Positions 752 to 60,108 are shown, counted from the first letter of the stretch. The stretch: 64,000 nucleotides of DNA from a virus (IMGVR_UViG_3300025137_005045); one strand, 5' to 3'. The notes: generated by a model not told the origin, from the letters alone. A program made the numbers and translations.

Positions 752-1278
752 TTTATAGCAATCCTTTTAAATTTTGCTAATTTTAACATATATTCTCGCT
801 CTCGTTCATAGTTGTGTTTTTCAGGTTGCTTGTACCAAGATTTAGTATACCAAGTCGGAGTAGCTTTCCAATCGAATCCGTACACATTAATATGTTTAGG
901 ATTATATTTTAGTAACCACCATAAGGTCATAAGTCCGCAACTAGGTCGATCTACCTTAACTATCGATTTAATTTCATTATTGGATTCTAACGGTATTTTA
1001 TAAAAAGATATGTTATAATCTACTTCCCTATTTTTGTTACTACAATGTATGATTGTATCTCTATCACTAATATCTCTTACTGAACTATCAAACTGCATAG
1101 GATCTGAAAATACAGCTAGATCACATCGTGTGCCATGACTTTGGGGTCTATTCAATGTGGTACCAGCATTAAGTTTTACTACCAAATCGTGCTGATCAAT
1201 TGCTTGACCAAAGTTCTGATCAAAAAGACTTTCGGCATTGCCGACTAATGCCATGTTAAGTCCAAGCTCTACTTTCAC
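748..1278 (-). CDS. GT29 (sialyltransferase-like) glycosyltransferase
   Basis: ALVGNAESL...IDQHDLVVKLN (sialylmotif L-like); PSCGLMTLWWLL...INVYGFD (motif S-like). Confidence 0.6.
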   Translation of the reverse strand: MKVELGLNMALVGNAESLFDQNFGQAIDQHDLVVKLNAGTTLNRPQSHGTRCDLAVFSDPMQFDSSVRDISDRDTIIHCSNKNREVDYNISFYKIPLESNNEIKSIVKVDRPSCGLMTLWWLLKYNPKHINVYGFDWKATPTWYTKSWYKQPEKHNYEREREYMLKLAKFKRIAIN

Positions 1279-2360
1279 TATGCTGGGGTGAACTGATATA
1301 ATGCTTCGTTGGGTTTGCCTGTTGTAATGATTGCTGGTGTTGATGTTCGACGCCTAATTTTAAGAACGTCTTCTCCAGTCTTAACCACAGCCATGGTGTT
1401 AGCACCAAAGTTAATTGCGGCTAGTATTTGCCATTGACCACCTTCTCCACCTGCTTTATAATAATTGAAGTTAGCAACAGTGTATGCTTTAACTACTTCG
1501 AGTGGATCACTGTTAGGTCTAGCAAATGTACTAATTAATGGTCCTGCTTGTTGCCCAAACAGTTCACCAAATAGTTGAGTAGCTAGATTTTTTCTGGTAG
1601 GAGCATCTAAACCGGCGTTGTTGACTATTTCAGTAAAAGATTTAACATTTAAACTTTTTTGTTTTGATAATGCTTGTGCCAGTGGCTCTCTTAACTGTTC
1701 ATAACTGTTAATAATTTCTTGCATGCGTTCTCTAGTAGGAACAGATGTTGCTTCGCCGAAACGTCCACCACCTCCTCCACTTTTAGAAGCTTTAACTTCT
1801 ACAGGGACACCTTTAACAGCAACATCACCACCTGCTGATTTAAGTGTGATGTCTGGCGATAGTATAGCAAGTGCATGCTCTCCAGGGCCTTTCATTTGCT
1901 CACCTACACCATAATCTTTAAGATGATCGAATACTACGAGATTTTCAGGTTTGTTATAAGTTAAATCTTGTAACGTATGTTGTCCTGGTTTAAGTAGTAG
2001 CTCTGCATTAATAACTTGACCTGCTTTTAAATTATCAGCAAACTTCATTTTATCTTGATATCGCATAGGAACTTCTGAAATTTTACCTGCAATCTGTAAG
2101 ATTTTTTTATCTAATACTCGCTTGACTTTAGGATCACTGACTTGCCCGTACTCATTTGCTAATTCTTGAGCAACAATGTCTTTAAACTTGTCAAATGTTG
2201 ATTGTTGATTTAATAAAGAATAGATACGATCCAATACTTCTTCAACTTCTTCAGCTTTCTTAGGATCGTCTGGATCTGAATCTAGACCCATTAATCGTTT
2301 AATGATGTCTTGTTTCAGCATTTGAAGTTCATCCTCTTTTAATATTTCTCTAAATCTCAT
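1278..2360 (-). CDS. Late protein with CTS-like N-terminus and possible PD-(D/E)XK nuclease fold
   Basis: Starts MRFREILKE; GEHALAIL...GDVAVKGVPVEVKAS; TAAATA on minus strand at 2384-2389. Confidence 0.55.
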   Translation of the reverse strand: MRFREILKEDELQMLKQDIIKRLMGLDSDPDDPKKAEEVEEVLDRIYSLLNQQSTFDKFKDIVAQELANEYGQVSDPKVKRVLDKKILQIAGKISEVPMRYQDKMKFADNLKAGQVINAELLLKPGQHTLQDLTYNKPENLVVFDHLKDYGVGEQMKGPGEHALAILSPDITLKSAGGDVAVKGVPVEVKASKSGGGGGRFGEATSVPTRERMQEIINSYEQLREPLAQALSKQKSLNVKSFTEIVNNAGLDAPTRKNLATQLFGELFGQQAGPLISTFARPNSDPLEVVKAYTVANFNYYKAGGEGGQWQILAAINFGANTMAVVKTGEDVLKIRRRTSTPAIITTGKPNEALYQFTPA

Positions 2361-14854: not shown

Positions 14855-15805
14855 ATGAGTGATTTATTAGTAGTTGGTGTTGAAGGTGTGATGCGTAATC
14901 ATCCAATGCCTGAGTCTGATAACTTCGTAGTAGTACCTTGGGAAGATAAACACACTATCGAACGTGCAGACGTCTTTATACAGGCTAATATTAAAGAATG
15001 TAAACACAAAGGACTATGGGAGCAATATCAATATATTATCGATTCGGGTAAGCCTATTATCTGTGTAGAAAGTGCTGTGTTTAGAAAAAATATGGAAACT
15101 AATACAATACCCTACCATAGATGGTCATGGTGGTCATACTTCAATGACGAAGGTGACTACTGTAATGACAACTCAGACGAAACAAGATGGAAACAGATCT
15201 CTGAGGAACAACAGTTAAAGATAGAACCCTGGCAGAACAATCCAGAAGGACATATACTTCTTTGTCTACAACGTCCAGGTGATAGTAGTTTACATAGAAT
15301 CCTTACTAAGAAAAAATCATCATACCAACAGTGGATATGGAAAACAGTCAGGTATATCAGACGATACACTGATAGAAAAATTGTTATACGTATACATCCT
15401 TTGCGTCAACAAGCTAGTTTAAATATGTTGTTTTCAATTGACAGTGTATATAAGAATATCGAGATATCTACAGACACTACAGGTGCTACTATTGAAAATG
15501 GAAGTAATGGTGGTGATGGATTTATACGTGATCTTGAAGGTGCTTACTGTGTGGTAGGATTAAATTCAAATGCGTTAACTGAATCAGTTATGGCTGGTAT
15601 TCCTACATTTAGTTTATGTTCAGGTTCGATGGCATGGCCAGTGAGTAATCATTTTTTAAAAGATATTAATTCTCCAATTATGGAGTTTGATCGAACACAA
15701 TGGCTGTATAATTTAAGTTACTGCCAGTGGAGAAAGGATGAAATAGAGCAAGGACTTCCCTGGGAACATTTAAAGAAAAAATTACCGGAGATAATAAGAA
15801 AATAA
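14855..15805 (+). CDS. Capsule polysaccharide modification protein (KpsS/KpsC-like)
   Basis: ILLCLQRPGDSS...IRIHP...VVGLNSNALTESVMAGIP. Confidence 0.6.
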   Translation: MSDLLVVGVEGVMRNHPMPESDNFVVVPWEDKHTIERADVFIQANIKECKHKGLWEQYQYIIDSGKPIICVESAVFRKNMETNTIPYHRWSWWSYFNDEGDYCNDNSDETRWKQISEEQQLKIEPWQNNPEGHILLCLQRPGDSSLHRILTKKKSSYQQWIWKTVRYIRRYTDRKIVIRIHPLRQQASLNMLFSIDSVYKNIEISTDTTGATIENGSNGGDGFIRDLEGAYCVVGLNSNALTESVMAGIPTFSLCSGSMAWPVSNHFLKDINSPIMEFDRTQWLYNLSYCQWRKDEIEQGLPWEHLKKKLPEIIRK

Positions 15806-16299
15806 TGACAACTATTTTTATAGATATGGATGGAGTAGTGGCAGACTTTGATGGATATGCTCATAGAACATTGGGCATTGAAAGTAAACCAGGATTTAGA
15901 TTCGACCAAAACGATTGGTATAAACTACGTCAACATAGTAATCGCATATACAGCATAATTCCTGTCCTACCAAATGCGTATGAGCTTGTTAGTAAGCTAA
16001 AAGAATTTCGTGATCAATATGGAGTTGAACTGCGTTTTTTAACAGCAATACCTAAGGAAAATGATTTAGGCTGGGCATTTTGGGATAAAATGGAATGGGC
16101 ATGCAAGCATTTTCCAGGAATACCTGTATGGTTCGGTCCTTACTCAACAGATAAACAACACCACCATAAGCCTGGAGACATCCTGATAGATGATAGAGTT
16201 GGTAACATCGAACAATGGCCTGAACATGGAATATTATACCAAGGTAACGATGAAATAACGTTAAATACAGTAGAACAAATACTTAGGGGTAAATCGTAA
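15805..16299 (+). CDS. 5'(3')-deoxyribonucleotidase, HAD family
   Basis: IFIDMDGVVADF; FLTA; K..W; ILIDD. Confidence 0.85.
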   Translation: MTTIFIDMDGVVADFDGYAHRTLGIESKPGFRFDQNDWYKLRQHSNRIYSIIPVLPNAYELVSKLKEFRDQYGVELRFLTAIPKENDLGWAFWDKMEWACKHFPGIPVWFGPYSTDKQHHHKPGDILIDDRVGNIEQWPEHGILYQGNDEITLNTVEQILRGKS

Positions 16300-37593: not shown

Positions 37594-37624
37594 GTACTAA
37601 TAACAATAACGAATTAGGTGAACA

Positions 37625-43543: not shown

Positions 43544-43575
43544 TGATAAATACTAGCCTACATTAAGGAATACTT

Positions 43576-44373
43576 ATGAAAGCTAGTGAATTTATTACAG
43601 ACGCCGGTGTTGGCATTATTACAAAACAAAATACGACTGCTGACGTCAAGCCTGGCGAAACAAAAAGACAAGCCAAGAAATTAGGGATGACGTTGGACAA
43701 GAAGAACCGTCCGCCCTTACTGCATAAAAAAGCAGTTAAGAACTCTTCACCCAATACCCTTTTTAATCTTGGCCTCAGTGAAAGTAATGCCGACGATCTT
43801 ATGGCCTATGCCGACAAAATGGATCCGACGGACATAGACTATAAAAAATTTATCCGTGCCGCAAAGATAGCTAGAACAGGCAAAAAGATACACATGGATA
43901 ACTTTTTAAACACAATAGATACAGACCCTAGAGATAAAATTATTAGTATGCTAGGTGAAACCAAAGAAGCACCCAAGGGAACTTACTTCACCAAGACAGG
44001 TAATTTGGTCAAGGGCAAACTGACCAAGGATGCCAAGACCAAGGGTGCCAGAGAAACTGACCCCAAGGACAAGATAAGAAAAAAAGTACCCAAGGTCACA
44101 CAGTACAATGAGGAAGAAGACAAAGAATTTGAAACGGATCTAAAACTGCCCAATGGTAAGAAGATGGTGCTACAGGCAGATGACCCAAAATATGTCAGAG
44201 GCATAGTGGTCAGGAGCAACAAGGATGGATCCTACGATTCATACTATTGGATTGATCATCCTGACAATGTTATGGCTATTGAAATCAAGTTGGATGATGA
44301 GAGTGTAAAGAAAGATGCCAAGATGATACATTGGGCATATCACCCTGAACTGGAAGAGCATAGGGTAAAATGA
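43576..44373 (+). CDS. Modular late protein with CTS-like N-terminus
   Basis: MKASEFITD; TAAATA at 43547-43552. Confidence 0.7.
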   Translation: MKASEFITDAGVGIITKQNTTADVKPGETKRQAKKLGMTLDKKNRPPLLHKKAVKNSSPNTLFNLGLSESNADDLMAYADKMDPTDIDYKKFIRAAKIARTGKKIHMDNFLNTIDTDPRDKIISMLGETKEAPKGTYFTKTGNLVKGKLTKDAKTKGARETDPKDKIRKKVPKVTQYNEEEDKEFETDLKLPNGKKMVLQADDPKYVRGIVVRSNKDGSYDSYYWIDHPDNVMAIEIKLDDESVKKDAKMIHWAYHPELEEHRVK

Positions 44374-45191
44374 GAGCAACTGACTTTACAAAAAAAGCCA
44401 CGGAGCGATCTAAAATTTATCTAGATATGGATGGTGTACTTGCTGATTTCTTTTCTGAATATGCTAAATTGGCTAATGTTAAATCATATAGAGATATCCC
44501 CCCAGCTAAGGTAGATCCAATACTTAACTCTATTGCTGGCACAAATTTCTTTGCTAAGTTACCTAAGTTTCCAACAACAGACAAACTAGTTAACCTTGCT
44601 GTATCACATGCAGGTAGTTACAGTATTTGTTCAAGTCCTTTACGTAATGATTATAATAATTCAGAGTACTGGAAAAAGATTTGGATTAAAGCTAAACTAA
44701 CACCACAACCAAGCACTGTAAAAATAACATCAAACAAATCTTACTACGCAGTATCAGACGGCACACCTAATATTTTAATCGACGACAAAGGTTCAAACAT
44801 TATAGGATGGAGAGAAGCAGGTGGTATTGGCATTAAGTATCAAGCAGATGAAGATAGTTTAGAAGTTGTCAAGCAAGCATTAGAACTAATATTCTGTGAT
44901 GTCAAGGATACATGTGACACGGATGAGGTAGAAGAAGACTGGTCAGAAAAATATAAAAAATCTATAGATTGTAATAGTCCAAAAGGATTTAGTCAGAAGG
45001 CACATTGTGCTGGTAAAAAGAAAAAAGCAAACGAAAACTTTGCGGATGGCAAAAAGCCTGGACGCAAAGGTTTAGCAAAACGTATGGGTGTTGACTGTAG
45101 TAAGTCAAAAACAGCATTACGTAAAATTGCCAAAAATAGCACAGGTGAGAAACAACGTATGGCCCATTTCTGTGCTAACATGAAGAAGTAG
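44370..45191 (+). CDS. 5'(3')-deoxyribonucleotidase with CTS-like leader and basic Cys-containing tail modules
   Basis: MRATDF; IYLDMDGVLADF; ILIDD; tail SIDCNSPKGFSQKAHC...ENFADGKKPGRKG. Confidence 0.8.
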   Translation: MRATDFTKKATERSKIYLDMDGVLADFFSEYAKLANVKSYRDIPPAKVDPILNSIAGTNFFAKLPKFPTTDKLVNLAVSHAGSYSICSSPLRNDYNNSEYWKKIWIKAKLTPQPSTVKITSNKSYYAVSDGTPNILIDDKGSNIIGWREAGGIGIKYQADEDSLEVVKQALELIFCDVKDTCDTDEVEEDWSEKYKKSIDCNSPKGFSQKAHCAGKKKKANENFADGKKPGRKGLAKRMGVDCSKSKTALRKIAKNSTGEKQRMAHFCANMKK

Positions 45192-45200
45192 TATAAGAGA

Positions 45201-45225
45201 CAAAAAGGATCGTACACGATGAAAG
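45201..45225 (+). repeat. 25-bp direct repeat copy 1 (RBS plus start)
   Basis: CAAAAAGGATCGTACACGATGAAAG. Confidence 0.9.
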
Positions 45226-45470
45226 TTAACGAAATTATAGTAGAAAAGAAAGAGTCCTTAGAAGAATTAGATTCTTTAATGGGAGTCAAAGATCCTGTGA
45301 TATCAATTTATGATACCAAGGGTAAGTATCTTGACAGACTTAAGATGAGTATTGCGGCTAAGAAATATAAGTTTGATATGAAAACTATCAGACCACAGTT
45401 TCAAAATCAAGACAGAGTCGATCATGGCGAATACACATTAATGGCACCAGTTGCTGGTCAACCATCATAA
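45219..45470 (+). CDS. Small protein with CTS-like N-terminus
   Basis: MKVNEIIVE. Confidence 0.7.
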   Translation: MKVNEIIVEKKESLEELDSLMGVKDPVISIYDTKGKYLDRLKMSIAAKKYKFDMKTIRPQFQNQDRVDHGEYTLMAPVAGQPS

Positions 45471-45495
45471 CAAAAAGGATCGTACACAATGAAAG
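45471..45495 (+). repeat. 25-bp direct repeat copy 2 (24/25 identical)
   Basis: CAAAAAGGATCGTACACAATGAAAG. Confidence 0.9.
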
Positions 45496-46034
45496 CAATT
45501 GATATTTTAACGGAAGTTAAAAAGGAACAATCACTGACACTCGAAAAATTACCCTATGGTACCGACGAATTATCTCCTGTACTGTCTAAGGAAAACGTGG
45601 AATATCATTATAATATATTGTCAAAAGGTTATGTTGATCGATATAACAACAACGAAGGCGATCCTGATTTTAATTATGGAGGAGCAAAGTTGCACAATCT
45701 GTGGTGGACACAATTGCGTAAACCGAGTGGAGCAAACTTACCAGTAGGACCTATAAAAGAATTTATTAATACCAACTTCAAAGATTATGATAATTTTAAA
45801 GATGAAGTGTTATCAGCAGGACTGAAATTACAGGGTTCGGGTTGGATTTACCTTTCAAAAAAGGGAGAAGTAAAAACTACGCCAAATCAATCTTATAAAA
45901 CAGAGATAATGATGCCAATAGACATGTGGGAACATTCATATTCGGATTATGTTCCTGATAAAAGTGCTAAGAAAAAATACATAGAAAATGTAATGAAAAT
46001 AATTAATTGGGATATTGTCAATCAGAGACTTTAA
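45489..46034 (+). CDS. Fe/Mn superoxide dismutase family protein with CTS-like extension
   Basis: LPY; EYHY; FNYGGAKLH; IDMWEHSY. Confidence 0.88.
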   Translation: MKAIDILTEVKKEQSLTLEKLPYGTDELSPVLSKENVEYHYNILSKGYVDRYNNNEGDPDFNYGGAKLHNLWWTQLRKPSGANLPVGPIKEFINTNFKDYDNFKDEVLSAGLKLQGSGWIYLSKKGEVKTTPNQSYKTEIMMPIDMWEHSYSDYVPDKSAKKKYIENVMKIINWDIVNQRL

Positions 46035-46036
46035 AT

Positions 46037-46339
46037 ATGAGAGCAATCGATCTGACAGCAACACAAGGAAAAGAGCCACCTCAGGTCAGACCTGGGCAGT
46101 ATCCTGGTGAATATCTTGACCTGTCAGTTAAAGACCTAGTACCTGTACAAAAGGTTAGACACGTACATAAAACTATTAAAGCAAACAAAAAAGTTAAACA
46201 GGGAGACTATACTCCTATTGTCATTGATCGAGATAATCGTATTGTAAATGGACATCATAGATATGATGCTCTTAAAAATGCGGGTCATCATCAAGCAAAA
46301 GTATATAAGTTAGAAAAGGATATAGAAGAGATAGTATGA
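46037..46339 (+). CDS. ParB/sulfiredoxin-like domain protein (start corrected from 46007)
   Basis: MRAIDL; PIVIDRDNRIVNGHHRYDA. Confidence 0.75.
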   Translation: MRAIDLTATQGKEPPQVRPGQYPGEYLDLSVKDLVPVQKVRHVHKTIKANKKVKQGDYTPIVIDRDNRIVNGHHRYDALKNAGHHQAKVYKLEKDIEEIV

Positions 46340-47070
46340 AAAAATTACTAATAATACTATTACTATTCACAACAACATCATTTGCATATGATCCTAAAAA
46401 CTTTAATCCAGACTTATGGCCATACATACAAGAAAGAATGTTCGGTGTTAGACCAGTTGTTGTATTAGATGCTAACGATGAGTTGATGGTGTCAGGACCT
46501 ATAAGAGCTTCAAGTGGAGCACAGGTTCCAGTAAATATAAAAATTAATACAGAACGTTTTGTAAAAATACATCTGATCATCGATTCTAATCCAACACAGC
46601 TTGCGGCCACATTTAAATTAACTAAAAATACTCAGAACACAGAAATAACGACCCGTATCAGAATGGAAACAGATAGTTACGTTCGTGTGGTAGGAGAAAC
46701 TATCCGTGGAGAGCTATACACACACAAGACAGGTATCAGAGCCAGTGGCGGCTGTTCGGGTTACATGGATGTACATGATCCAGAACTTACTCGAGACTTA
46801 GGCAAGATATTATATAAAAAGAAAGACAATGCTCATACTACCAGGATTAAACATCCTATGTTTACTGGTTTACAAAAAGATTTAGAGTCAGGTGGTTATA
46901 TACCATTATGGACTGTTAAAACTATTACATGGATCGACGATGAAAATAATATTATAATGCAAGCGGATACTTACATTTCAATTTCAAAAGATCCATATAT
47001 TAAATTTAAATACAATGGTGATGTTAAAATTGTTGCCGATGATACAAAAGGAAATTCATTTAAAAAATGA
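46336..47070 (+). CDS. Secreted SoxY-SoxZ-like fusion (quinoprotein dehydrogenase-associated carrier type)
   Basis: Signal peptide; TRIRMETDSYVRVV; ASGGCSG; IKHPMFTGLQKD; SISKDPYIKF. Confidence 0.75.
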   Translation: MKKLLIILLLFTTTSFAYDPKNFNPDLWPYIQERMFGVRPVVVLDANDELMVSGPIRASSGAQVPVNIKINTERFVKIHLIIDSNPTQLAATFKLTKNTQNTEITTRIRMETDSYVRVVGETIRGELYTHKTGIRASGGCSGYMDVHDPELTRDLGKILYKKKDNAHTTRIKHPMFTGLQKDLESGGYIPLWTVKTITWIDDENNIIMQADTYISISKDPYIKFKYNGDVKIVADDTKGNSFKK

Positions 47071-48389
47071 GAGCAAGACAATTTATACGAGAGTACTCCA
47101 GAGAAAAAACTCAGCAGGTGCATGGCGAGAAAATCATACAAGCACTACAGAGAGATAAGCAACCTCGTGCCGATTTAGATATATGGAACTTGCATTCAAG
47201 TAGTGGCAGTTGGAAAGACATGCACCCAAATTCCAAACAAGAGTTGTTAAACAAGATATTTGCTCAAATTGAATCAGGAGATCCTAGTAAAAACAAAGAA
47301 TACAGTCAATGGTTAGCACGTATGTATTCAAAAGGTGATACACCGCTAGAAGATATTAAAAGTAAGACACGAGACGATTTAGAAAAATATATAGCTCTCA
47401 AGTTAAGAAAGAAACTAAAGCCCGAACACAAAGATATTAATCAAATAAAAGCACCCATTAATCTATCACAGGCAATGGCTAACTACAGTGATGAAGAACT
47501 AGAAGCACCTGTTACAGACAAAGGTAGCAGTCGTGAAATTTATCGTGACAGTGCAATTAGAGTTATAGTGCCTAAGGATACAGCGGCGGCTTGTTATTAT
47601 GGTCAAGGGACTAAATGGTGTACTGCGGCACGCAGTAACAACATGTTTGATCAGTATCACAAGATGGGAGATATGTATATCATAATGCCTACTAAACCCA
47701 AGTACGAAGGCGAAAAGTATCAGTTCCATTTCCAAAGTGGACAGTTTATGGACGAGCAAGATCGTGATGTAGATATGTATAAGGTACTAAGACAGTATCC
47801 TTCAATACGTAATATTAAAACAATAACTGATTGGGCTAAACGTAAAACGGTACCAGCACTAATGACTGATGAAGATTATGCTGAGTGGAAAGACGAAAGC
47901 AATACACAGATACTTAACAATCGTGTAATGTACGGTGATATGTATACCTTAAGTTTAAATCAACCAGGCACTTCAATGGATTCCTGGACAATTAGTAGTA
48001 GTACTATTAAAATGTTAACTGAAAAAAGCATGATGAAAGAATCAGAATGGTCTCAGCTAGCAGGTACAGACTACATAGCCTATGGTTGGTTTGACACAAC
48101 CAGTAATACTTGTTTGGGTGTAACATATGCTGAACTAGGTGAAGATCCTGGATTTGCAGTTCAGACCATTGATAATGATCAGTTTGAAGAGGCAGTCGGG
48201 TTAAATGTTGAACCCGAAGTTGTAAAGCTAGAAAAATTCTTAAAAGGTATGGTACGAATAGAAAATGAAGCAATGGGGGATGGTTTAGCTAAAGAACAGT
48301 ATGACAAAGCAGTTAACCAACTGTTGGATAGTTATGGTTACCCAATGTCAGTAACAGGATATGTAGGTGGAGAGCCAGAGAGAGCATAA
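47067..48389 (+). CDS. CTS-bearing late protein with GTxWC (PcfJ-like) domain, paralog 1
   Basis: MRARQFIRE; AACYYGQGTKWCTAA; KYQFH..SGQFMDEQD. Confidence 0.7.
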   Translation: MRARQFIREYSREKTQQVHGEKIIQALQRDKQPRADLDIWNLHSSSGSWKDMHPNSKQELLNKIFAQIESGDPSKNKEYSQWLARMYSKGDTPLEDIKSKTRDDLEKYIALKLRKKLKPEHKDINQIKAPINLSQAMANYSDEELEAPVTDKGSSREIYRDSAIRVIVPKDTAAACYYGQGTKWCTAARSNNMFDQYHKMGDMYIIMPTKPKYEGEKYQFHFQSGQFMDEQDRDVDMYKVLRQYPSIRNIKTITDWAKRKTVPALMTDEDYAEWKDESNTQILNNRVMYGDMYTLSLNQPGTSMDSWTISSSTIKMLTEKSMMKESEWSQLAGTDYIAYGWFDTTSNTCLGVTYAELGEDPGFAVQTIDNDQFEEAVGLNVEPEVVKLEKFLKGMVRIENEAMGDGLAKEQYDKAVNQLLDSYGYPMSVTGYVGGEPERA

Positions 48390-49606
48390 TGAGAGCAAAA
48401 CAATTTATAATAGAATACGATAGAACTAAAACTGCACAGGCATTTGCCGCAAAGCTAGTTAATACTGCTATGCAAGACAACACTGTTCCGGGTGCTGTTA
48501 GAAAAAATATACAGGATAACATGACTCCTGTAGAAGCCGCTGAGATGATACTTAAAAATCAAATTGAAGTGGGTGATCCTACCAAACAGAAAAAGTATTC
48601 ACAAGCCCTAGCAAAGATGTATGCCAACGGTTTAATCAAATGGGAAGACATAGGTAGCACAATGCGTGACTACTTGACTAAGTTTGCTACTCTGGCAGTT
48701 AAAAAATTACTTAAACCTGAACACTCAGACTTTAATAGATTTAAAGATTTAAAATCATTCTATGATGTAGTTGATCAATATGAAGAGCCCGAAGGCAAAG
48801 AAAAGAGATCAAAAGGTGATGCCAAGGAAGTTTACAGAGATGCGAATGTGCGTGTCATACAGCCCGAGGACATGAATGCCGCTTGCTACTATGGACAGGG
48901 TACACGTTGGTGTACAGCCGCAGATAGTAATAATATGTTTGATAGATATAATCAAGATGGTGATATGTATATCATAATACCCACCAAAGCCACCCACGAA
49001 GGTGAGAAGTATCAGATACATCCTGCGTCAGGACAATACATGGACGAACAAGATCGTGATGTAGAAGCAGACGATTTAATAAAACGTTTTGGTCAAGACT
49101 TCAGAACATGGTGGTTAACTATAGACCCAGACCTAGGCGGACGTATAATATTTTTCCCTAATGAAGATGAACTTAGAAAAGCCTGTGAAGAAATTAAACA
49201 GATGAGTTTAGAATTCTTAAATGACGTTATGATAGATTGGGAAATGGATGATGAAACATATTATCAGTATCTTCAGGACGAGGGGTATGTTGATGAAGAA
49301 GGTGAGTACCAGGGTGATTATCCTTCATACACAGCATACAATGATTCTGCTGGTGCATATTATGGTAATGTTTACGGTGCCCTTGATATAACTGTAGATG
49401 AAGTGCGTGAACTAGCTAGACAAATTGAAGAAGATGACGGACGTAATCAATACATAGGCGATTTAGAAAATGTGTTTAGTATTAGTGTAGAAAACGCAAT
49501 AGATAGACAAGATGGATTACCAACTACAATATACAGACAGATACAAGTAACGCTTAAAAACGGTAAAATAACTGTAGAGTACATTCCACCACCTAAAAAA
49601 GATTAA
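48389..49606 (+). CDS. CTS-bearing late protein with GTxWC (PcfJ-like) domain, paralog 2
   Basis: MRAKQFIIE; AACYYGQGTRWCTAA; KYQIH..SGQYMDEQD. Confidence 0.7.
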   Translation: MRAKQFIIEYDRTKTAQAFAAKLVNTAMQDNTVPGAVRKNIQDNMTPVEAAEMILKNQIEVGDPTKQKKYSQALAKMYANGLIKWEDIGSTMRDYLTKFATLAVKKLLKPEHSDFNRFKDLKSFYDVVDQYEEPEGKEKRSKGDAKEVYRDANVRVIQPEDMNAACYYGQGTRWCTAADSNNMFDRYNQDGDMYIIIPTKATHEGEKYQIHPASGQYMDEQDRDVEADDLIKRFGQDFRTWWLTIDPDLGGRIIFFPNEDELRKACEEIKQMSLEFLNDVMIDWEMDDETYYQYLQDEGYVDEEGEYQGDYPSYTAYNDSAGAYYGNVYGALDITVDEVRELARQIEEDDGRNQYIGDLENVFSISVENAIDRQDGLPTTIYRQIQVTLKNGKITVEYIPPPKKD

Positions 49607-49639
49607 TAAATATTAGTATATAATACTCGGGGGAGTAAA

Positions 49640-49963
49640 GTGGCAGAAGATAAAAAAGTTGCAGTCCAAGCAACAGAAAAAAAACAAACAAAAAAAGTTA
49701 ATTTAGAACTAGAAGTAGATGCTACAGCAAAAGATCTAGGTGTTAGTCCTTATATAAATTGGGTACATATGGCTCGTGCTGTTGATGCATGGAGAATATT
49801 TCCAAGATTATTCTTAACTGTTTACATCATCTTATTATATAAATGTGTAATTTGGTATATGGCATTGCCTTTACCTACAATGGAACAATCAGGTTTAATC
49901 AGTATTGTAGTTGGTGCTGGTGCGGCATGGTTTGGACTTTACACAGGTTCAAGCAAAAAATAG
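49640..49963 (+). CDS. 2-TM membrane protein (holin candidate)
   Basis: GGGGAG SD, GTG start; WRIFPRLF TM1, TM2, basic C-terminus. Confidence 0.6.
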   Translation: MAEDKKVAVQATEKKQTKKVNLELEVDATAKDLGVSPYINWVHMARAVDAWRIFPRLFLTVYIILLYKCVIWYMALPLPTMEQSGLISIVVGAGAAWFGLYTGSSKK

Positions 49964-49985
49964 AACACTCCTTCCTTAGGACCGT

Positions 49986-50040
49986 GTAGCTTTGCTCCTG
50001 GCTTTAATTATTAGGAACAATAATTTAAAAGGAGCACTAC
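49986..50040. terminator. Long hairpin between convergent genes
   Basis: GTAG/CTAC, TGCTCCT/AGGAGCA, TTAATTATT/AATAATTTAA. Confidence 0.5.
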
Positions 50041-51036
50041 TCATTTCCAACCTAATTTATCAATACGATCTAAAATATTTTTACTGTACATCTCGTGAGT
50101 AAGTGGACCAGGATGGAGATCATCTGTGCCAAAATCTAAAAAGTTCGAATCAAAATCTGTGCCTGATCTCCCATTTATCATTATAAAATTTTTCCTGGAA
50201 GATAACATAGCACTAATTTCTACGCTATTGTGTAGTCCTACTAATAGCAAATCTACGCCAATTTTATCACAAACATTTTCTACTCTGTATATTGCTGATA
50301 GTGCTTCAAAAGTCCAATGATCTTCTAATAGACTAATTTCGGGTATTATTTTATCAAATTCTTTATTAGATTGATAATATCCACTGTTTATCATTTTAAT
50401 TGATTTGTTACGATACCAATAAAATCTTTCTGTACCGGTTAACCCCCATATTATTTTGTCGCCTTTTTTTAAATCAGCTCTTAAAAGTTGATCACTAGCA
50501 TACGATATACTACTACCTCCCATTGCTAAATCTATTGCAGGGAGATTAAGGTGTTTGCATACAGACTTCCAATATACTTTATCTTTATCTACTCCAACAG
50601 AAGCAGTTGTACTACATCCTGCTATCCATATATTTGAAGAATTAGAAACTCGACGTTGAGGAACTTCGGGCTTAAATTTGTAATTTTCTTCTGAAAAAGG
50701 AATATGTAAAGGTATGTTACTAGCATTAGAAGCTATTACAGAATAGTATAGAGAAAACCATGCCATGGAGTATTTTTTGTTTATAGTCTGTTTATCTGAC
50801 CAAAGATCATTGGCATTTTCAGACGGAGGATGAAATATAATTTCTGAAGATTTGAATAAAAGATTTATAAAACTTTTTAAATCAACATATCCGAGACTTA
50901 CATATACAACTCCACGATGTGTATCATTTACATTATTGGAATCTATCAAATATGCATCACTGTCTATATTTTTCGCATATTTACTGAGATATTCAGTGGT
51001 ATCACCGACTACTATTGTTAAATTTTTACTATACAC
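50041..51036 (-). CDS. Protein with C-terminal SGNH-like domain
   Basis: AGCSTT; GGSSI; DLHPG. Confidence 0.6.
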   Translation of the reverse strand: MYSKNLTIVVGDTTEYLSKYAKNIDSDAYLIDSNNVNDTHRGVVYVSLGYVDLKSFINLLFKSSEIIFHPPSENANDLWSDKQTINKKYSMAWFSLYYSVIASNASNIPLHIPFSEENYKFKPEVPQRRVSNSSNIWIAGCSTTASVGVDKDKVYWKSVCKHLNLPAIDLAMGGSSISYASDQLLRADLKKGDKIIWGLTGTERFYWYRNKSIKMINSGYYQSNKEFDKIIPEISLLEDHWTFEALSAIYRVENVCDKIGVDLLLVGLHNSVEISAMLSSRKNFIMINGRSGTDFDSNFLDFGTDDLHPGPLTHEMYSKNILDRIDKLGWK

Positions 51037-52981
51037 AATGTAATTGTTTCATTTTTGTTTCTTTAGTGATAAATGCTTTACCGAAATTACGTTTACGTCC
51101 ATACCAAAAGTCTTGTAAGAAACGATCAAATGTCATATCTTTATTTTCACGGAAGTCAAACTTGACCATGGTGGTTGAATCCAATGGTTCCTCATTGACA
51201 ATGTATCCAAAGAAGTCATAGTCAAATGTTTTTGCTAACGGATACTGCGTTAGTTTATCGTAGTTTAATACATATGTTCTATTGTAATCTAATAGTTGTG
51301 TCATTAACTTCTCAGGTAAGTCAAACGTTTTTCTAACAAATTGTTCTATTAGATCAAACACACGATCATGCTGATGATCTGCGTGCATGGTCATCGCTGT
51401 TCTGTGTATTAGATTCCAACCATGGATAGGAACTGTTCCACCAATTAACGGATGATTAATTCTACCTTTGTCTTTCCAATTATCGTAATATTTTCTAATT
51501 TCATCTTCTTCTTTTTTAAACCAATCATCTTGCTGTAAGAAAGGTATAAGTTTTTCATAAAATTCAGAATAGTCAATACTTTGATGTTTATGCAGGAATC
51601 TAGCTATCCAAGTTGTAAGTCCATTCATATGAAACGTGTTTATAAACCAATTGAATACTTGCGTGTCTACCATAATGTTTCTTGGCATTGTTCCTGTTGA
51701 CATAACAACTTCCACTGATTCTGCTAGACTATCATAGTTATAACTACCACTCATATAATCATATATAGGAACAGCTTCTAGTTTGTTCATTTTACGCTGT
51801 AGTAAATTCATTTCAGCATTTTCTAATAGCTGACACTGATGTATGGTAACACCTGTATGATTTCCTAAACGAAATAACGACCAAAGATTTTCTTTCCAGG
51901 TTTCCTGTGTTTCTCCAGGTAATCCTAATATAACTTCTGTGTCAACTGGTATACCATTCTTGTTACATAGATCAAATATTTCTGTAATATTATGTTGTCC
52001 TAGATTTTTACGTTTAATATTTTCTAAAACATCTAAGTTCATTGATTGTACTGATACTGTTAAACCTTGATTAAAGGATCCAGCTTTGAATAATTTTTGT
52101 ACTATTTTATATACATCTGCTTTTTGATTTTTAGCCCAAGTCATGCTTACACCTTGAGGAAATTTATACTTGGATTGAACTTCTAGTATTTTATCTGCTA
52201 TTTCATTGTCGCGATCACGGAACATACCAAAGTTAGCATCAGCAATAGTTATATAACCACATTTATTTTTACCTATCCATTCTATTTCGTCAAGCACACG
52301 ACTGTATTCAAACTTTTTAACTTTACCATATGTTAGACTACCCCAATCACAGAATGTACATTGATACGGACAACCTCTATTAGTTTCGATAGTGGCATTC
52401 CATTCTACTTTGCCCAATGTTTCTTTCATAAGTTTATCAAATACTCCTGTCAGATAAGGGCTAGGTACATCTTCGAGATCTTTTATTCTAGGAGCGTCTG
52501 GTGTTGCTACCCGTACTCCGTTTTTATTAAGTACAACACCGTTAATTTCTTCAAGGTCAGTGCCTTGATGTAATGCTACTAGTAAATTTCTAAATGTTAT
52601 TTCACCTTCTCGAACTACAACAAGATCCATGAAAGGATAAGTTTCAAAAACATTTTTCTTTTCATGTGGTATTTCTGGACCACCAAAAAATAGAAATACA
52701 TCTGGATTAACTTCTTTTAGTCGACGAGCAAGAGCATATATGTAATTACGATTCCACACATATGTTGAAAATCCAACTACTTTGTTATCTTTTAGCTGTT
52801 CAACATATTCTTCTATATCACGTCTTTCCCATATTAACTGATCTAACTCGTAATTATCTTTAACAACATCATCCTGCTGTGCATAACTCCATAGGATACC
52901 TGCACTATAGGGAAGATAGTGGGCATTAAGCTCTATAGGGCCTTGTTGAAAATTTGGTTGACACAGACTGACTTTTTTCAT
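51029..52981 (-). CDS. Cobalamin-binding radical SAM enzyme (class B-like)
   Basis: GFSTYVWN...GGPE; RGCPYQCTFCDW. Confidence 0.88.
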   Translation of the reverse strand: MKKVSLCQPNFQQGPIELNAHYLPYSAGILWSYAQQDDVVKDNYELDQLIWERRDIEEYVEQLKDNKVVGFSTYVWNRNYIYALARRLKEVNPDVFLFFGGPEIPHEKKNVFETYPFMDLVVVREGEITFRNLLVALHQGTDLEEINGVVLNKNGVRVATPDAPRIKDLEDVPSPYLTGVFDKLMKETLGKVEWNATIETNRGCPYQCTFCDWGSLTYGKVKKFEYSRVLDEIEWIGKNKCGYITIADANFGMFRDRDNEIADKILEVQSKYKFPQGVSMTWAKNQKADVYKIVQKLFKAGSFNQGLTVSVQSMNLDVLENIKRKNLGQHNITEIFDLCNKNGIPVDTEVILGLPGETQETWKENLWSLFRLGNHTGVTIHQCQLLENAEMNLLQRKMNKLEAVPIYDYMSGSYNYDSLAESVEVVMSTGTMPRNIMVDTQVFNWFINTFHMNGLTTWIARFLHKHQSIDYSEFYEKLIPFLQQDDWFKKEEDEIRKYYDNWKDKGRINHPLIGGTVPIHGWNLIHRTAMTMHADHQHDRVFDLIEQFVRKTFDLPEKLMTQLLDYNRTYVLNYDKLTQYPLAKTFDYDFFGYIVNEEPLDSTTMVKFDFRENKDMTFDRFLQDFWYGRKRNFGKAFITKETKMKQLHCV

Positions 52982-53045
52982 AATTTAATTATACTTGGTT
53001 AGCTAGTATTTAACAAGACCTAGCTTTATCAATATAAATATTTAT

Positions 53046-53336
53046 ATGGAAGAAAAATTTATTAAAGTTCATTTTAACCTCAACGTTGCACGTCTTAAAA
53101 AGCAAACAGCCGGATATCGATTATATGTTAACGATGAGCTATTTAACGAACGCACCTGGCGATGGGACACCTTTGTTTATCTAGAAGAAATGTTACAAAT
53201 CAAGGCAGTTCCTGGTAAATATAAAGTAACAATAGAAAAATATCATCCTAGCAAGGCAAGATTTGATATAAGCAATATGAGAGTTGAGCTAGGTAATGCT
53301 CGAATTATTGAAAACAATACTATAGAGATATTATAA
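53046..53336 (+). CDS. Hypothetical late protein
   Basis: TATAAATA-5nt-ATG. Confidence 0.7.
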   Translation: MEEKFIKVHFNLNVARLKKQTAGYRLYVNDELFNERTWRWDTFVYLEEMLQIKAVPGKYKVTIEKYHPSKARFDISNMRVELGNARIIENNTIEIL

Positions 53337-53337
53337 A

Positions 53338-53526
53338 ATGAAAATATTTGAAATTATTAAAGAAACTGCATCAGCTGGTACGACCACTGCTGGAAATATC
53401 GCTAGTGTTGCTAACCCACATGTGACCAAATACAAAGGTCCAAAGCCTAAAAAACAAAAACCCACAGACAACGCTCTAGATATGAAGGGAACTTCGATCT
53501 TTGGTGGCCCGCTCAAAAGAGTCTAA
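53338..53526 (+). CDS. Small protein with CTS-like N-terminus
   Basis: MKIFEIIKE-TASAGTTTAGNIASV. Confidence 0.7.
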   Translation: MKIFEIIKETASAGTTTAGNIASVANPHVTKYKGPKPKKQKPTDNALDMKGTSIFGGPLKRV

Positions 53527-53575
53527 TACTTTTCCTTAGTGATAAATATACTTAACGAAAAGGTTTAGGTATATT

Positions 53576-53806
53576 ATGAACATCAATGACTTTAATGAAG
53601 ACCAATTGGACCACGAGGTTCAAATGGCAAAATCAGATCTATTAGAACTAGCTAAGAATGCAATGCAAACTTACAAATTACTAGCAGAACACTATAACGA
53701 AGAGCGTGGGCTACCAGGCTGGGTACAATCAAAAGTAACCAAAGCCGACGACTATATGAGATCAGTACGTAAGTATCTTGAACATAAAGAAGATCACATG
53801 CTATGA
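53576..53806 (+). CDS. Small late protein, probably an internal head protein
   Basis: MNINDFNE; LPGWVQSKVTKADDY; TAAATA at 53543-53548. Confidence 0.7.
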   Translation: MNINDFNEDQLDHEVQMAKSDLLELAKNAMQTYKLLAEHYNEERGLPGWVQSKVTKADDYMRSVRKYLEHKEDHML

Positions 53807-54240
53807 TTGTAGAAGATTTAAAAGTATTGCTAGCAAGCTCATACAGCTACTCACTGAAAGCTCAATACTTTCATTGGAATGTGGAGGGACGTAGCTTTTC
53901 ACAATTGCATGAATTTTTTGGTGATGTGTATCATGAAGTATATGACAGCATTGACACCAATGCTGAATTAATAAGACAATTAGACAGTTATGCTCCTGGA
54001 AGTTACAATCGTTTCAGAGAATTATCAACAGTTGCTGATCAAACTAAAGTACCTAGAGCAAGCATGATGATCGAAGAATTACTTGAAGATACTAACAAGA
54101 TGTTAGACTTAACTAAACGTATGTTTACCGTAGCTGAACAAGAAAACGAGCAAGGTATAGCAGATTTTATAGCGGACCGTATAGATGCTTTCGCAAAACA
54201 CGCATGGATGATGCGTAGCTTTTTAAAGGCAAGAGATTGA
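53803..54240 (+). CDS. dps: Dps/ferritin-like DNA protection protein
   Basis: HWNVEG..F..LHEFFG..Y; D..AE; K..WM. Confidence 0.9.
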   Translation: MIVEDLKVLLASSYSYSLKAQYFHWNVEGRSFSQLHEFFGDVYHEVYDSIDTNAELIRQLDSYAPGSYNRFRELSTVADQTKVPRASMMIEELLEDTNKMLDLTKRMFTVAEQENEQGIADFIADRIDAFAKHAWMMRSFLKARD

Positions 54241-54241
54241 T

Positions 54242-55564
54242 ATGATATTAAACAATTTATTTGAATCAAAATATGGGGCGGCGGCAGGCGTAGAAACAAT
54301 ACGTCAATTATTGCATGCTGTGAAAAATTCAAAGGACATAGATCTTAAAGTAGGTCCGGAAATGTTTCCGTTGACATACGGTGATGCACGATACTTGCTA
54401 CAATATTTTAAAGCAAACAGAGAAGGTGGTGATGCTACTGCTGAATACTTTGGTGATGCTAACTGGATTGAAGGTATGTTAGCTAAACGTGATCACGCCA
54501 TGAGTCCAGATAGATTAAAAGACATGGATCAGGAGCGTATGAAATCAAAAGACTACGATCGTATGCTAGACATACAAGAAGGTGAAGTAAGAGATACACA
54601 TTGTTCACCCAAGTGTTGTGGAGCAGATGTAAAGGCAGAAGACTGTGGTTGTGCACCAGACTGTTCACATTGTAATTGTAATAAAGAAGAATTAGAAGAA
54701 TATTCACTTCAAGCTACTAATCAACAAGACAGAGAAGCAAAAATGAAATCATTGCAAGCATTGCTTACTGATCCTAACACCTCAAAAGATCCAGATTTAA
54801 AACGAGCAGTTATGCGTAGAATGGCACAACTATCAGAAGATCAGAAGTGGCCAGCAGAATACAAAGGTTGGAAGTATAGTGAAGACGTAGAGCAGTATGA
54901 TGATGTTAGTAAAAAATTCCATTATGCTACTAAAGATGGCAAGCAAGTGCCAATTGATTGGTCACCATATTCAACCATGAGCGATACACAATTTAAAACC
55001 TGGATTGACCTAGACATGCCAACACGTAAAGCAGTTAAGGGCATTGGTCCATTAGGTGCAACTGATCTAGAACAGTTAATGAAAACTAAACTAGGTACTC
55101 GAGCAAGACTAGCCCAAGAAGACAAACCAATGGATATTGAATTAGATGTGTTAAAATACACACGAGATGACATTGCCAAGGCAATTGCTATAGCAAGAGG
55201 AAGTAGTGGCGATATGACCGGTGCTACTGAGCGTATTGAAGCAATGGCAGACGGTTTATCAAATCATTCAGACGTGGCAAAAGTACTAAAAATTGCAAAT
55301 GAACAAAAAGAAGATGATATCACTAAAAAATTAGATCCTAAAACTAAACTAGCACTTAAAAAAGCACAAATGAGAACTGCTGGTGTTACCAAAGGCGACC
55401 CAATAGCCGCACTGGCAATGGGTTTAGAAAAAGATGTTGATCGTTTGGATAAAGAAAATGATCAAGAAGAAGCTGATATTGCAGGTCAGGCACTAGTTGA
55501 CAAGTATCACAATCAAGAGTTAGAACAACTTAAAAAAAGCCTAACCAATTTACTCAGAAAGTAA
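54242..55564 (+). CDS. Modular late protein with CTS-like start and internal xxE-bounded modules
   Basis: MILNNLFE; Cys-rich module HCSPKCCG...CGC..DCSHCNC. Confidence 0.7.
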   Translation: MILNNLFESKYGAAAGVETIRQLLHAVKNSKDIDLKVGPEMFPLTYGDARYLLQYFKANREGGDATAEYFGDANWIEGMLAKRDHAMSPDRLKDMDQERMKSKDYDRMLDIQEGEVRDTHCSPKCCGADVKAEDCGCAPDCSHCNCNKEELEEYSLQATNQQDREAKMKSLQALLTDPNTSKDPDLKRAVMRRMAQLSEDQKWPAEYKGWKYSEDVEQYDDVSKKFHYATKDGKQVPIDWSPYSTMSDTQFKTWIDLDMPTRKAVKGIGPLGATDLEQLMKTKLGTRARLAQEDKPMDIELDVLKYTRDDIAKAIAIARGSSGDMTGATERIEAMADGLSNHSDVAKVLKIANEQKEDDITKKLDPKTKLALKKAQMRTAGVTKGDPIAALAMGLEKDVDRLDKENDQEEADIAGQALVDKYHNQELEQLKKSLTNLLRK

Positions 55565-56624: not shown

Positions 56625-57399
56625 TGTTTATAAAGATATTATTACAGACGATGATATTGCTAGTCTGCTAGAGTATTTTAGATTAGTTGATGATAGAACA
56701 GACAGCCGACCTGATGTTGTTAGTAAGCATCCTCATTGGGATAAAGATCATTGGCCGCAGGGCATTATTAAAAGAATACTTAATCAGGTACTAGATAAAG
56801 AATATCTAGTAGAAGAAGTAATCTTTAATCATTCTAAGATTAGTTTTGGATTACATGCTGATAGCGGAGTACTTGATCAACCTATATATAAAGCCATATT
56901 GATTCCATTGGAAGTGACAGCAAACAGTGGAACAGCATTTTTTAATAATCATTGGTTGTTTCCAAGTGCTAAGTTTACACGTCAAAAATTTAATCCTTTA
57001 GATTATACAGTGTTTGACTGCGACAATAATCCTGTAAAAGTTAATCTTAAAGAATTTTTACAGAATAGAAATTTAAGTTTATTCTCAAATTATACAGATG
57101 CATACATTAAAAATCTCATCGAGACTCGATTAAACAATACAGGTTATACTAAAACTGATGTTCGAACTAATCAATATGAAAAAATCAAAGGATACGATCC
57201 CAAAAAAACTATAGATCAAAAGGTCTATAACCAACATCTTAATCATATTGTTTATGATGATCTACAGGGACTTAGCCTAGATCAAATCGTTCCTTGGGTA
57301 ACCGGAGAAGCTATAGTGTTTGACAGGACACAATTACATTGTGCTACCAGTGGACATACATCTAAGACTGGCATAACGATATTTACTGATCTGGTTTAA
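56617..57399 (+). CDS. 2OG-Fe(II) oxygenase-like protein (start corrected from 56518)
   Basis: GLHADSG; W..G..IVFDRTQLHCA. Confidence 0.6.
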   Translation: MVDVYKDIITDDDIASLLEYFRLVDDRTDSRPDVVSKHPHWDKDHWPQGIIKRILNQVLDKEYLVEEVIFNHSKISFGLHADSGVLDQPIYKAILIPLEVTANSGTAFFNNHWLFPSAKFTRQKFNPLDYTVFDCDNNPVKVNLKEFLQNRNLSLFSNYTDAYIKNLIETRLNNTGYTKTDVRTNQYEKIKGYDPKKTIDQKVYNQHLNHIVYDDLQGLSLDQIVPWVTGEAIVFDRTQLHCATSGHTSKTGITIFTDLV

Positions 57400-59278: not shown

Positions 59279-60108
59279 TTAAATGTCACTGTTGATATAT
59301 GATTAACTGTTGCTTCTTCAGGGCACATTCTACATATTGAGTGAGGTTTTCCAAAGTTGTTAATAAACTTGTTAATGCTACCCAGACCAGACTGCGGAGT
59401 AATCATAGTATCAGGTTGATCTAAATACGGACTCCAACTTTCATTATTCTGTTGTCCAACTTTATCTAATACGTCGTTGAGTAGCCCCCTGGTGCTACAT
59501 TTATATATTATACCATTATATAATAGAGGACACTGTTGCTGGCAACAAGCGTCAAACGCAGTAGATGGATTGGAATTATGCGGTTCCATATTGTCGTATG
59601 TTCCTTTATAGCTTTTAGTAAAATGTGTAGGTCTATTGATCTGAAATCTAAAAGTACCCGATTTCCATCTATCTATGCCATATTCGGTAACAGACTCCCA
59701 ATCGTATCTCTTAAAAATTTTATCAATGGCCGAATTTATTCTTTGGTCATCAACGTGAACTGTTATTTTAAATACCGAATTCCCAATCTCTTTCATTAGA
59801 TCTACTACATCAAAATGTTTTTCAAGTAATAAGCCGTTGGTAGTAAAGCGTACTTGACTATCTGGTAAGAGTTCTCTGGTGCCAGAGATCCATTCTCGAA
59901 CTTGAGGATTGATCAACGGTTCTCCACCCATGAGTCCAAAGTCAGAAATATTAATCTTTTTTAACCATTTAGATAGATCTTCTTTACCTTGTTCCCAGGG
60001 AACAAATCCTCCAAATTTTAAATCTGAGTAGTTAGTACACCCAGTGCAACTTAGATTGCATACTTGGGTCAGCATTGTTTCAACAAAGGGTAAAGTAGGT
60101 TTAATCAT
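59275..60108 (-). CDS. Radical SAM protein
   Basis: CNLSCTGC; GGEPL; C-terminal C...CP...KC...CRMC. Confidence 0.85.
   Translation of the reverse strand: MIKPTLPFVETMLTQVCNLSCTGCTNYSDLKFGGFVPWEQGKEDLSKWLKKINISDFGLMGGEPLINPQVREWISGTRELLPDSQVRFTTNGLLLEKHFDVVDLMKEIGNSVFKITVHVDDQRINSAIDKIFKRYDWESVTEYGIDRWKSGTFRFQINRPTHFTKSYKGTYDNMEPHNSNPSTAFDACCQQQCPLLYNGIIYKCSTRGLLNDVLDKVGQQNNESWSPYLDQPDTMITPQSGLGSINKFINNFGKPHSICRMCPEEATVNHISTVTFK

Follow-up and report, generated by a model that had tools for sequence, protein, structure and literature searches.

Candidate capsid-targeting leaders on unrelated proteins, including a superoxide dismutase, of a PA5oct-like marine jumbo phage

Why would a nucleotidase, a superoxide dismutase (SOD) and several proteins that resemble neither begin with much the same nine residues? 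The question is raised by the genes at 43576-55564 of the viral sequence IMGVR_UViG_3300025137_005045, which we analyzed over a stretch of 64 kb (the window; 35% G+C, densely coding, 94 called genes). An earlier note on this DNA had likened these N-termini to the capsid-targeting sequence (CTS) of the internal proteins (IPs) of phage T4 and proposed that the phage packages and injects an enzyme toolkit. We find that nine credible members with a strict motif and two looser ones share a short N-terminal leader, and we put at roughly 0.7 the probability that the shared N-termini are T4-type capsid-targeting propeptides in a marine jumbo phage akin to Pseudomonas phage PA5oct. Genes are named below by their start coordinate, with (-) for the minus strand, and Table 1 gives their extents and leaders.

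A leader shared by unrelated proteins

The leader has a consensus of about nine residues, a Met and a basic residue followed by acidic-hydrophobic-hydrophobic-x-Glu, and in 8 of the 11 leaders a hydrophobic-x-Glu triplet falls within residues 6-9. The N-termini that the earlier note had listed are present, both the clear ones (43576, 44370, 45219, 45489, 47067, 48389 and 53338) and those it had considered looser (53576, 54242 and 2360(-)); 53576 and 54242 are genuine members, as their orthologues in the related contig L003 begin with leaders of their own. The N-terminus MRAIDL exists as well, but only from the ATG at 46037, which lies within an open reading frame called from a TTG at 46007 and immediately 3' of the SOD stop codon. 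The strict form of the motif, ^M[KR]..[EDQ][FIL], opens 10 of the 94 called genes, where N-terminal composition predicts 1.2 (binomial P=5e-7), and shuffling of the N-terminal columns, which preserves position-specific composition, reaches ten motif genes in 0.015% of trials (P=1.5e-4). The interval 43576-55564, with 16 genes, accounts for eight of the ten (hypergeometric P=4e-6). The motif follows 0.8% of internal Met residues, and the comparison of gene classes that the earlier note had called for found it absent from the replication and metabolic genes of the window. In the relative G001 one strict-motif gene lies outside a syntenic cluster at 107-114 kb. The tenth, 24668 (MRKIDL, a radical SAM protein absent from the earlier note's list), we do not count as a member: its alignment with an untagged paralogue begins at residue 1, and its match to the motif is probably due to chance.

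All-against-all BLAST detected a single paralogous pair among the tagged proteins, 47067 and 48389, the others being alike in the tag only. The leader is appended to the folded or catalytic domain and is not part of it. The SOD 45489 matches Sod_Fe_N and Sod_Fe_C of Pfam (4e-10 and 1e-19), the alpha-hairpin domain only over profile positions 3-41 of 82; it conserves the His, His, Asp and His ligands of 1ues and 1qnn, and its residue 19 aligns with residue 6 of the solved SODs, leaving 13 extra residues. The 5'-3' deoxyribonucleotidase 44370 is recognized by phrog_2643 (6e-22), while a Pfam search gave no match at E<=0.01; DMDGV stands at residues 19-23, and at its C-terminus the protein has two Cys/Lys-rich modules, which in relatives occur shuffled. 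The untagged nucleotidase 15805 does, as had been claimed, begin at its catalytic motif, starting at DMDGV and aligning to residues 14-171 of 44370, whose leader amounts to 12 residues beyond this paralogue. Of the tagged enzymes named in the earlier note, SOD and nucleotidase thus stand by profile, and the third, 46037, is ParB-like by PHROG only (1e-8), with no match in a Pfam search. An AlphaFold2 model of 47067 (pLDDT 83.8) leaves residues 1-7 disordered and has its first helix from residue 12 onward; Foldseek of this model against the PDB found no match at E<=0.001. In the ESM Atlas 47067 hit only unnamed viral clusters, and 43576 and 54242 gave nothing usable (Atlas models at pLDDT ~0.52). 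None of the tagged window proteins resembles capsid or scaffold families in profile searches or, for 47067, in the Foldseek search.

Conservation and exchange of the leader, and the head machinery of relatives

Orthologous leaders of the 47067 family hold M-R-A-[RK]-x-F-[IL]-x-E-Y despite synonymous changes (AGA/CGT, GCA/GCT, ATA/ATC/ATT, GAA/GAG), and 112 of 120 database homologues, down to ~35% identity, keep that start. This pattern argues that the leader is under selection at the protein level. The SOD family presents the complementary case of a conserved body behind changing leaders. All 21 of its homologues in IMG/VR contigs have a leader ahead of the ...LEKLPY core, and these leaders, most of which end in hydrophobic-x-Glu, include ...YISLFE, MIIRELLE, MIIMEVTE, ...YIDIVE, ...LIDLFE and a type of ~40 residues, MDL.YLKKLAGIGE. 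From codon 13 on, the SOD gene of contig L030 is ~90% identical in DNA (85% in protein) to that of the window, and upstream of that codon, in the leader and 5' region, there is no DNA similarity at all. The window SOD leader and its 19 upstream nt instead repeat those of 45219 in a 55-nt repeat with 75% identity, of which a 16-nt core, AAAAAGGATCGTACAC, is identical in both copies; the 16-nt upstream repeat occurs in the window at just these two places and is missing from the relatives that were compared. The sharp breakpoint against L030, together with the repeat shared by 45219 and 45489, shows directly that the SOD leader cassette has been replaced, an exchange on which the claim that the phage tags new genes depends. 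Such natural swaps indicate that leaders are interchangeable, which is not a demonstration that they are sufficient.

The longer leader MDL.YLKKLAGIGE precedes the SOD of more distant relatives (G006 235150-235788 and L046-L049); when sought in the window, G001 and G006 it was found only on the G006 SOD. The start of PA5oct gp203 (127321-128817), MFNINDILRLAGV, resembles it, and gp203 is detected by mass spectrometry (MS). This leader may represent a second capsid-targeting class.

The ends of leaders also appear equivalent to internal Glu junctions of the kind that a processing protease would use. In 53338 the leader ends ...IKE and is followed by TASAGTTTAGNIASV (IKE/TASAG), whereas in a fusion protein of L003 the same module follows ...GEISE and begins DATAGATAAGNIASV (ISE/DATAG), the junction being aligned with the end of the 53338 leader. 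The Cys/Lys-rich module WSEKYKKSIDC... is preceded by EVEE in 44370, by LPEE and PVNE in two relatives, and in a third comes directly after a leader ending ...DLFE; the next module, NFADGKKPG..., is preceded by x-x-Glu in every case. Three leader-bearing proteins of relatives (L005 6391-7080, L002 11208-11720 and L006 17745-18947) carry a metalloprotease-like HExxH module (HEMVHY) joined, in either order, to the Cys/Lys-rich modules of the nucleotidase, and this arrangement indicates module shuffling among the putative cargo genes.

A capsid-targeting propeptide of the T4 type would presuppose a gp21-family protease and a T4-type core or scaffold. Contig G001, with 82% identity in 47067 and a gene order shared up to the DNA polymerase, has a T4-type head module that runs portal (phrog_213), a small protein (79 aa, start MNILEFFE), a core protein (283 aa, start MNKYEQLIE), S77 protease, a scaffold-like protein and the major capsid protein (major head protein, phrog_138); the S77 protease is of the gp21 type (PF03420, 1.7e-27; phrog_207). 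The 242-kb contig G006 has the same head module (protease 9e-27), in which the 66-aa protein adjoining the portal starts MRYKELKE, and a syntenic cluster at 227-237 kb with ~10 leader-bearing genes, homologues of the nucleotidase and SOD among them. A gp21-family protease is also present in PA5oct. For this cultured phage, the GenBank note 'ESI-MS/MS' (electrospray ionization tandem MS) marks 93 of 445 coding sequences as found by MS of particles (Lood et al., 2020; PMC7318152). Those so marked include gp261, an annotated hypothetical protein that is a 37%-identical homologue of the SOD with the extension MNDSIKKYISIAE before its ...IPIPY core; gp205, the homologue of 47067 and 48389, which starts MKLFEVF...; gp150, a 73-aa protein adjoining the portal that starts MKINDIITE; and gp381, which starts MKILEFNLTE. 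The paper itself contains no occurrence of superoxide dismutase or propeptide (PMC7318152).

The same type of N-terminus can be read in the T4 record NC_000866, where ipII and ipIII start MKTYQEFIAE, ipI starts MKTFKEFTS... with ITE at residue 19, and gp24, gp22 and Alt start MAKINELLRE, MLKEQLIAE and MELITE. The pattern derived from the window, allowed one residue of slack in its spacing, matches four T4 open reading frames, ipII and ipIII among them (hypergeometric P=1.4e-5). T4 propeptides of 10-19 residues target the IPs to the core, and gp21 cuts after (L/I)-x-E (PMC9026906, PMC5694885). It removes the CTS of IPI, IPII, IPIII and Alt (Mullaney & Black 1996; reviewed in PMC9026906, PMC3012670, PMC5694885), cutting Alt at ITE-6 (PMC9026906, PMC5694885, PMC3012670, PMC12373910).

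As to timing, the late expression that had been claimed finds a basis in ATAAATA boxes ahead of tagged operons, a basis confined to the motif, and is plausible. T4 late promoters read TATAAATA. The window has 14 copies of ATAAATA where 40+-6 are expected, a 3-fold depletion, and 10 of the 14 precede a called gene start by 12-64 nt and are oriented toward it; genes so preceded include 43576, 49640, 53046, 53576 and 2360(-), and GATAAATA also precedes the alternative SOD leader of L030. At five plus-strand boxes of the window (17091, 24655, 40606, 41620 and 53034) ATAAATA begins 12-13 nt before the ATG (e.g. GATAAATAGTTGCATG); if transcription starts a few bases past the box, as in T4, these five mRNAs would be nearly leaderless and without a Shine-Dalgarno sequence.

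Packaging weighed against the alternatives

We propose a scheme in which the tagged proteins would be made late from ATAAATA-type promoters, and the leader of about nine residues would dock them onto the scaffolding core during prohead assembly. The gp21-family (S77) prohead protease would then cut after the leader Glu, and the mature SOD, nucleotidase, ParB-like protein, 47067/48389 and small basic peptides would stay in the head with the DNA until, in the most conjectural of these steps, they are ejected into the next host. New cargo would be recruited by recombination, either by setting a leader and ribosome-binding region before a gene or by joining modules at Glu sites.

Several observations weigh against this scheme. 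The head module is seen in relatives, the window phage's own head genes lying outside the 64 kb. The motif-bearing PA5oct proteins gp75, gp382 and gp422 have no ESI-MS/MS note; 3 of 6 pattern-matching genes (4 of 7 with the SOD homologue) are noted against a baseline of ~21%, a weak enrichment. The PA5oct MS used purified lysate and also lists '7 virion-unrelated enzymes' (PMC7318152), so that co-purification of an abundant late protein is possible. Three leaders (43576, 44370 and 46037) have no Glu at position 9: that of 43576 ends ITD, and the first fitting Glu is residue 12 in 44370 and residue 13 in 46037. A T4 leader with Asp for its last Glu still targets but is no longer cut (PMC9026906). 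The likeness to T4 propeptides, which the earlier note had asserted, stands as a resemblance but not in register, the window leader being nine residues and thus one shorter than the T4 CTS of ten; a fixed-register weight matrix built from the window leaders failed to find the T4 IPs because the T4 CTS is one residue longer, and nine residues cannot prove homology. Conservation in the 47067 family continues beyond the leader (EY[SD]R.KT), so the N-terminus could belong to the mature protein. Sites of the form [ILVFMA]-x-E occur at 2.2 per 100 aa in tagged proteins versus 2.5 elsewhere; this density lends a 'polyprotein' reading no support, and only the specific aligned junctions count as evidence. 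Lastly, the operon of the tagged genes includes a Sec-exported SoxYZ protein and the second cluster an untagged ferritin-like one.

The alternative closest to packaging keeps the targeting and drops the delivery: the leader would bring its proteins to the prohead, where they act inside the particle, or where they assist the core or scaffold until maturation and are then degraded and expelled. We hold this to be unlikely as a whole, the in-particle variant, e.g. an SOD that guards packed DNA against oxidative damage in sunlit seawater, being a serious alternative. It agrees with the leaders on small portal-adjoining proteins of G001, G006 and PA5oct, and with the textbook consideration that an oligomeric Fe/Mn metalloenzyme like SOD must unfold to pass through a tail tube. 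T4, moreover, puts similar N-termini on its core and shell proteins gp22, gp24 and gp67 (PMC5694885). Yet GFP, and even a protein of the size of beta-galactosidase, can be brought into cells by T4 when fused to the CTS (PMC9026906), and the finding of gp261 and gp205 by MS of mature PA5oct particles speaks against complete degradation and expulsion.

Departing further from packaging, the leader could be another kind of N-terminal signal, either a handle or degron for a phage Clp system or a docking peptide for a non-capsid assembly, or the shared start could have no function, arising from cassettes of ribosome-binding site and first codons spread by duplication and recombination or from a choice of AT-rich codons that helps translation to initiate. 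Both are less likely, the signal improbable and the functionless start more improbable still. The Clp version draws on the ClpP (3594-4178) and ClpA/B-like ATPase (37625-39934) genes of the window, on a ClpS-like adaptor gene placed directly upstream of the PA5oct SOD gene and two genes upstream in Vibrio phage 2.275.O (coordinates of these neighborhoods: PA5oct 172602-173527; L073 1494-3537), and on the invariant Glu9-Tyr10 of the 47067 family, at which a cut would expose an N-terminal Tyr. An N-terminal Tyr is a classical ClpS N-degron. Left unexplained, however, would be the leader on portal-adjoining proteins, the particle MS, the match to T4 propeptides and the equivalence of Glu junctions, and the SOD of the Vibrio phage is without a clear leader of this kind. 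For spreading cassettes one may cite that ATGAGAGCA opens four genes and that the 55-nt upstream-plus-leader repeat links 45219 and 45489, and for codon choice that 33% of this genome's proteins have Lys or Arg at position 2. The amino-acid pattern nevertheless survives synonymous changes and recurs in leaders of unrelated DNA, neither replication nor metabolic genes of the window have the motif, which is also rare in the rest of G001, and the column shuffle already allows for composition.

If, as we favor, the leader functions in the T4 manner, one could read from sequence alone which proteins are packaged by the marine jumbo phages of this large, abundant and uncultured group; among them would be enzymes usually called 'auxiliary metabolic genes' and taken to be expressed inside infected cells. 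An SOD carried in virions would have its role in protecting the particle or the earliest stage of infection and not in mid-infection metabolism; leader swaps and the shuffling of Glu-delimited modules suggest how phages recruit cargo, and PA5oct offers a cultured system for the question. A bolder extension, which taken whole we regard as doubtful, would make the head of PA5oct-like phages a general loader of a modular, evolvable payload built on interchangeable leaders and Glu junctions. SOD, nucleotidase, ParB-like protein, HExxH modules and Cys/Lys-rich peptides would join this payload by recombination, to be packed, trimmed and delivered. The particle, or the cell as soon as infection begins, would then contain an active antioxidant enzyme, and cutting at the invariant Glu9/Tyr10 would leave proteins of the 47067 family with a Tyr N-degron to set their lifetime after delivery.

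The locus, its lineage and its likeness to known systems

Untagged genes, a SoxY-SoxZ fusion and a ferritin-like protein among them, are interspersed with the tagged ones (Table 1), and the cluster is therefore not purely a cargo island. The SoxY-SoxZ fusion, conserved at 74-75% in relatives L002-L004, is untagged and presumably exported in the infected cell, not packaged. The ferritin-like 53803 was considered as a tagged member and set aside because it lacks an N-terminal extension.

Table 1. Tagged genes, untagged neighbors and associated elements of the window (pI, isoelectric point; RBS, ribosome-binding site)
Coordinates	Strand	Feature	Remarks
1278..2360	-	360-aa protein, leader MRFREILKE	ATAAATA box 2384-2390 ahead
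15805..16299	+	Untagged nucleotidase paralogue (comparator)	
43546..43552	+	ATAAATA box (GATAAATA), T4-late-promoter-like	30 nt before first tagged gene
43576..44373	+	265-aa basic protein, pI 9.3, leader MKASEFITD	Asp at position 9; 93%-identical homologue in IMG/VR locus L052
44370..45191	+	Tagged 5'-3' deoxyribonucleotidase (HAD, DMDGV)	12-aa extension MRATDFTKKATE; phrog_2643
45200..45254	+	55-nt repeat, copy 1: 19 nt upstream/RBS plus leader codons of 45219	Repeat family D3
45219..45470	+	83-aa protein, leader MKVNEIIVE	
45470..45524	+	55-nt repeat, copy 2: upstream plus leader	Before SOD gene
45489..46034	+	Tagged Fe/Mn SOD, leader MKAIDILTE inside 13-aa extension	Four metal ligands kept
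46037..46339	+	100-aa ParB/Srx-like protein, start MRAIDL	First Glu is residue 13; PHROG
46336..47070	+	SoxY-SoxZ fusion, Sec-type signal peptide, untagged	Same operon as tagged genes
47067..48389	+	440-aa protein, leader MRARQFIRE/Y	Large viral family, conserved WCTA core; PA5oct homologue gp205
48389..49606	+	405-aa paralogue of 47067, leader MRAKQFIIE/Y	47% identity over 245 aa
53034..53040	+	ATAAATA box	Precedes 53046/53338
53338..53526	+	62-aa basic peptide, pI 10.3, leader MKIFEIIKE	Body is C-terminal half of L003 fusion
53542..53548	+	ATAAATA box	Precedes 53576
53576..53806	+	76-aa protein, loose leader MNINDFNE	L003 orthologue MKANEFVNE
53803..54240	+	Ferritin-like protein, no N-terminal extension	Pfam match residues 6-142 of 145
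54242..55564	+	440-aa protein, second leader type MILNNLFE/S	L003 orthologue MIVTDLFTE

The window belongs to an uncultured marine jumbo phage of PA5oct kinship. Its DNA polymerase is of the T4 family (phrog_262), with the best cultured match in Sinorhizobium phage Phosso (45% identity; a literature search on Phosso found nothing) and 43% identity to 350-kb enterobacterial jumbo phages; a gp44-type clamp loader, MazG, PhoH, a GroES/gp31-like protein and several radical SAM enzymes are also encoded. Window 20951-39934 is syntenic with 183.7-195.7 kb of PA5oct, with 58% identity in the clamp loader and 49% in the N-terminal half of the DNA polymerase. A sequencing-run search located near-identical DNA in marine metagenomes of several studies, and there was no RNA run among the matches listed for the window DNA. 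For IMG/VR contigs with homologues of the tagged proteins, CheckV estimates a completeness of 33% for a length of 115 kb and of 55% for 242 kb, from which genomes of roughly 350-440 kb follow. Against cultured phages, neither megablast of the region nor tblastn of 43576, 54242 and 2360(-) found a match.

Elsewhere in the window, two adjoining genes at 26939-28016 match PHROG families of virion structural proteins (phrog_12928, 3e-36; phrog_13138, 8e-17) and have counterparts in PA5oct at 191.7-192.6 kb, within a block otherwise given to replication and chaperones. Two paralogous B12-binding radical SAM enzymes with 33% identity, together with their neighbors (50041-52981 and 57383-60108, minus strand), interleave between the tagged clusters and the DNA polymerase. 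At 30637-33314 four consecutive genes encode kinase-like P-loop (GxxGxGK/N) proteins, of which 31625 and 32257 are 39%-identical paralogues.

Among known systems, the giant phiKZ-like phages (SPN3US, phiKZ and 201phi2-1) likewise fill a large head with many proteins that a gp21-related protease trims after Glu (PMC5694885). The ejection proteins of that different lineage, however, have A/S/G-x-E sites and mostly propeptides of >100 aa, and lack this leader. Strict-motif genes are far fewer in PA5oct, the closest cultured relative that we found, than in the window phage. In phage P1, which is not of the T4-type lineage, the Dar proteins are incorporated hierarchically via DarA/Hdf with no short common leader. 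Two papers describe these anti-restriction proteins of P1 as packaged in the head and delivered with the DNA (PMC9024508, PMC12810830).

The closest likeness is to T4 itself. As in the T4 CTS, the leader is the sole shared part of unrelated proteins and has a basic position 2 and an acidic-Phe/Ile-hydrophobic-x-Glu core; as in the T4 system, the genes are clustered and variable, enzymes stand among the loaded proteins of T4 (Alt) and among the candidates here, and the relatives have an S77 protease with its head module. The starts of gp24 and gp22, which are shell or core components and not cargo, match window leaders such as MKVNEIIVE almost residue for residue, being one residue longer. Two further T4 proteins begin in a related manner: the hypothetical 54-aa gp61.1 (gene 61.1, NC_000866 18966-19130) starts MKTFKEFIKE, a near-perfect CTS, and the head-resident DNA-end protector gp2 (gene 2, 76061-76885) starts MAIFQIINE. 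Unlike T4, the PA5oct-like phages have several leader types (MKAxEFIxE, MIxxDLFE and, in relatives, the long LKKLAGI type), and where the T4 IPs are small restriction inhibitors, the cargo candidates here are enzymes of a housekeeping type (an Fe/Mn SOD, a deoxyribonucleotidase and a ParB-like protein) and shuffled Cys/Lys-rich modules, in a marine lineage of jumbo phages of roughly 300-350 kb. Our literature search found no paper that connects a CTS with jumbo phages of the marine or PA5oct-like kind, and none that connects SOD with phage particles. That T-even IPs are alike only in their CTS, and that one such sequence can serve diverse cargo, is established (PMC3012670, PMC9026906, PMC12373910). 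The principle is thus known from T-even phages, and what is new here is the lineage, the types of cargo, the nine-residue register, the multiplicity of leader types and the evidence from junctions.

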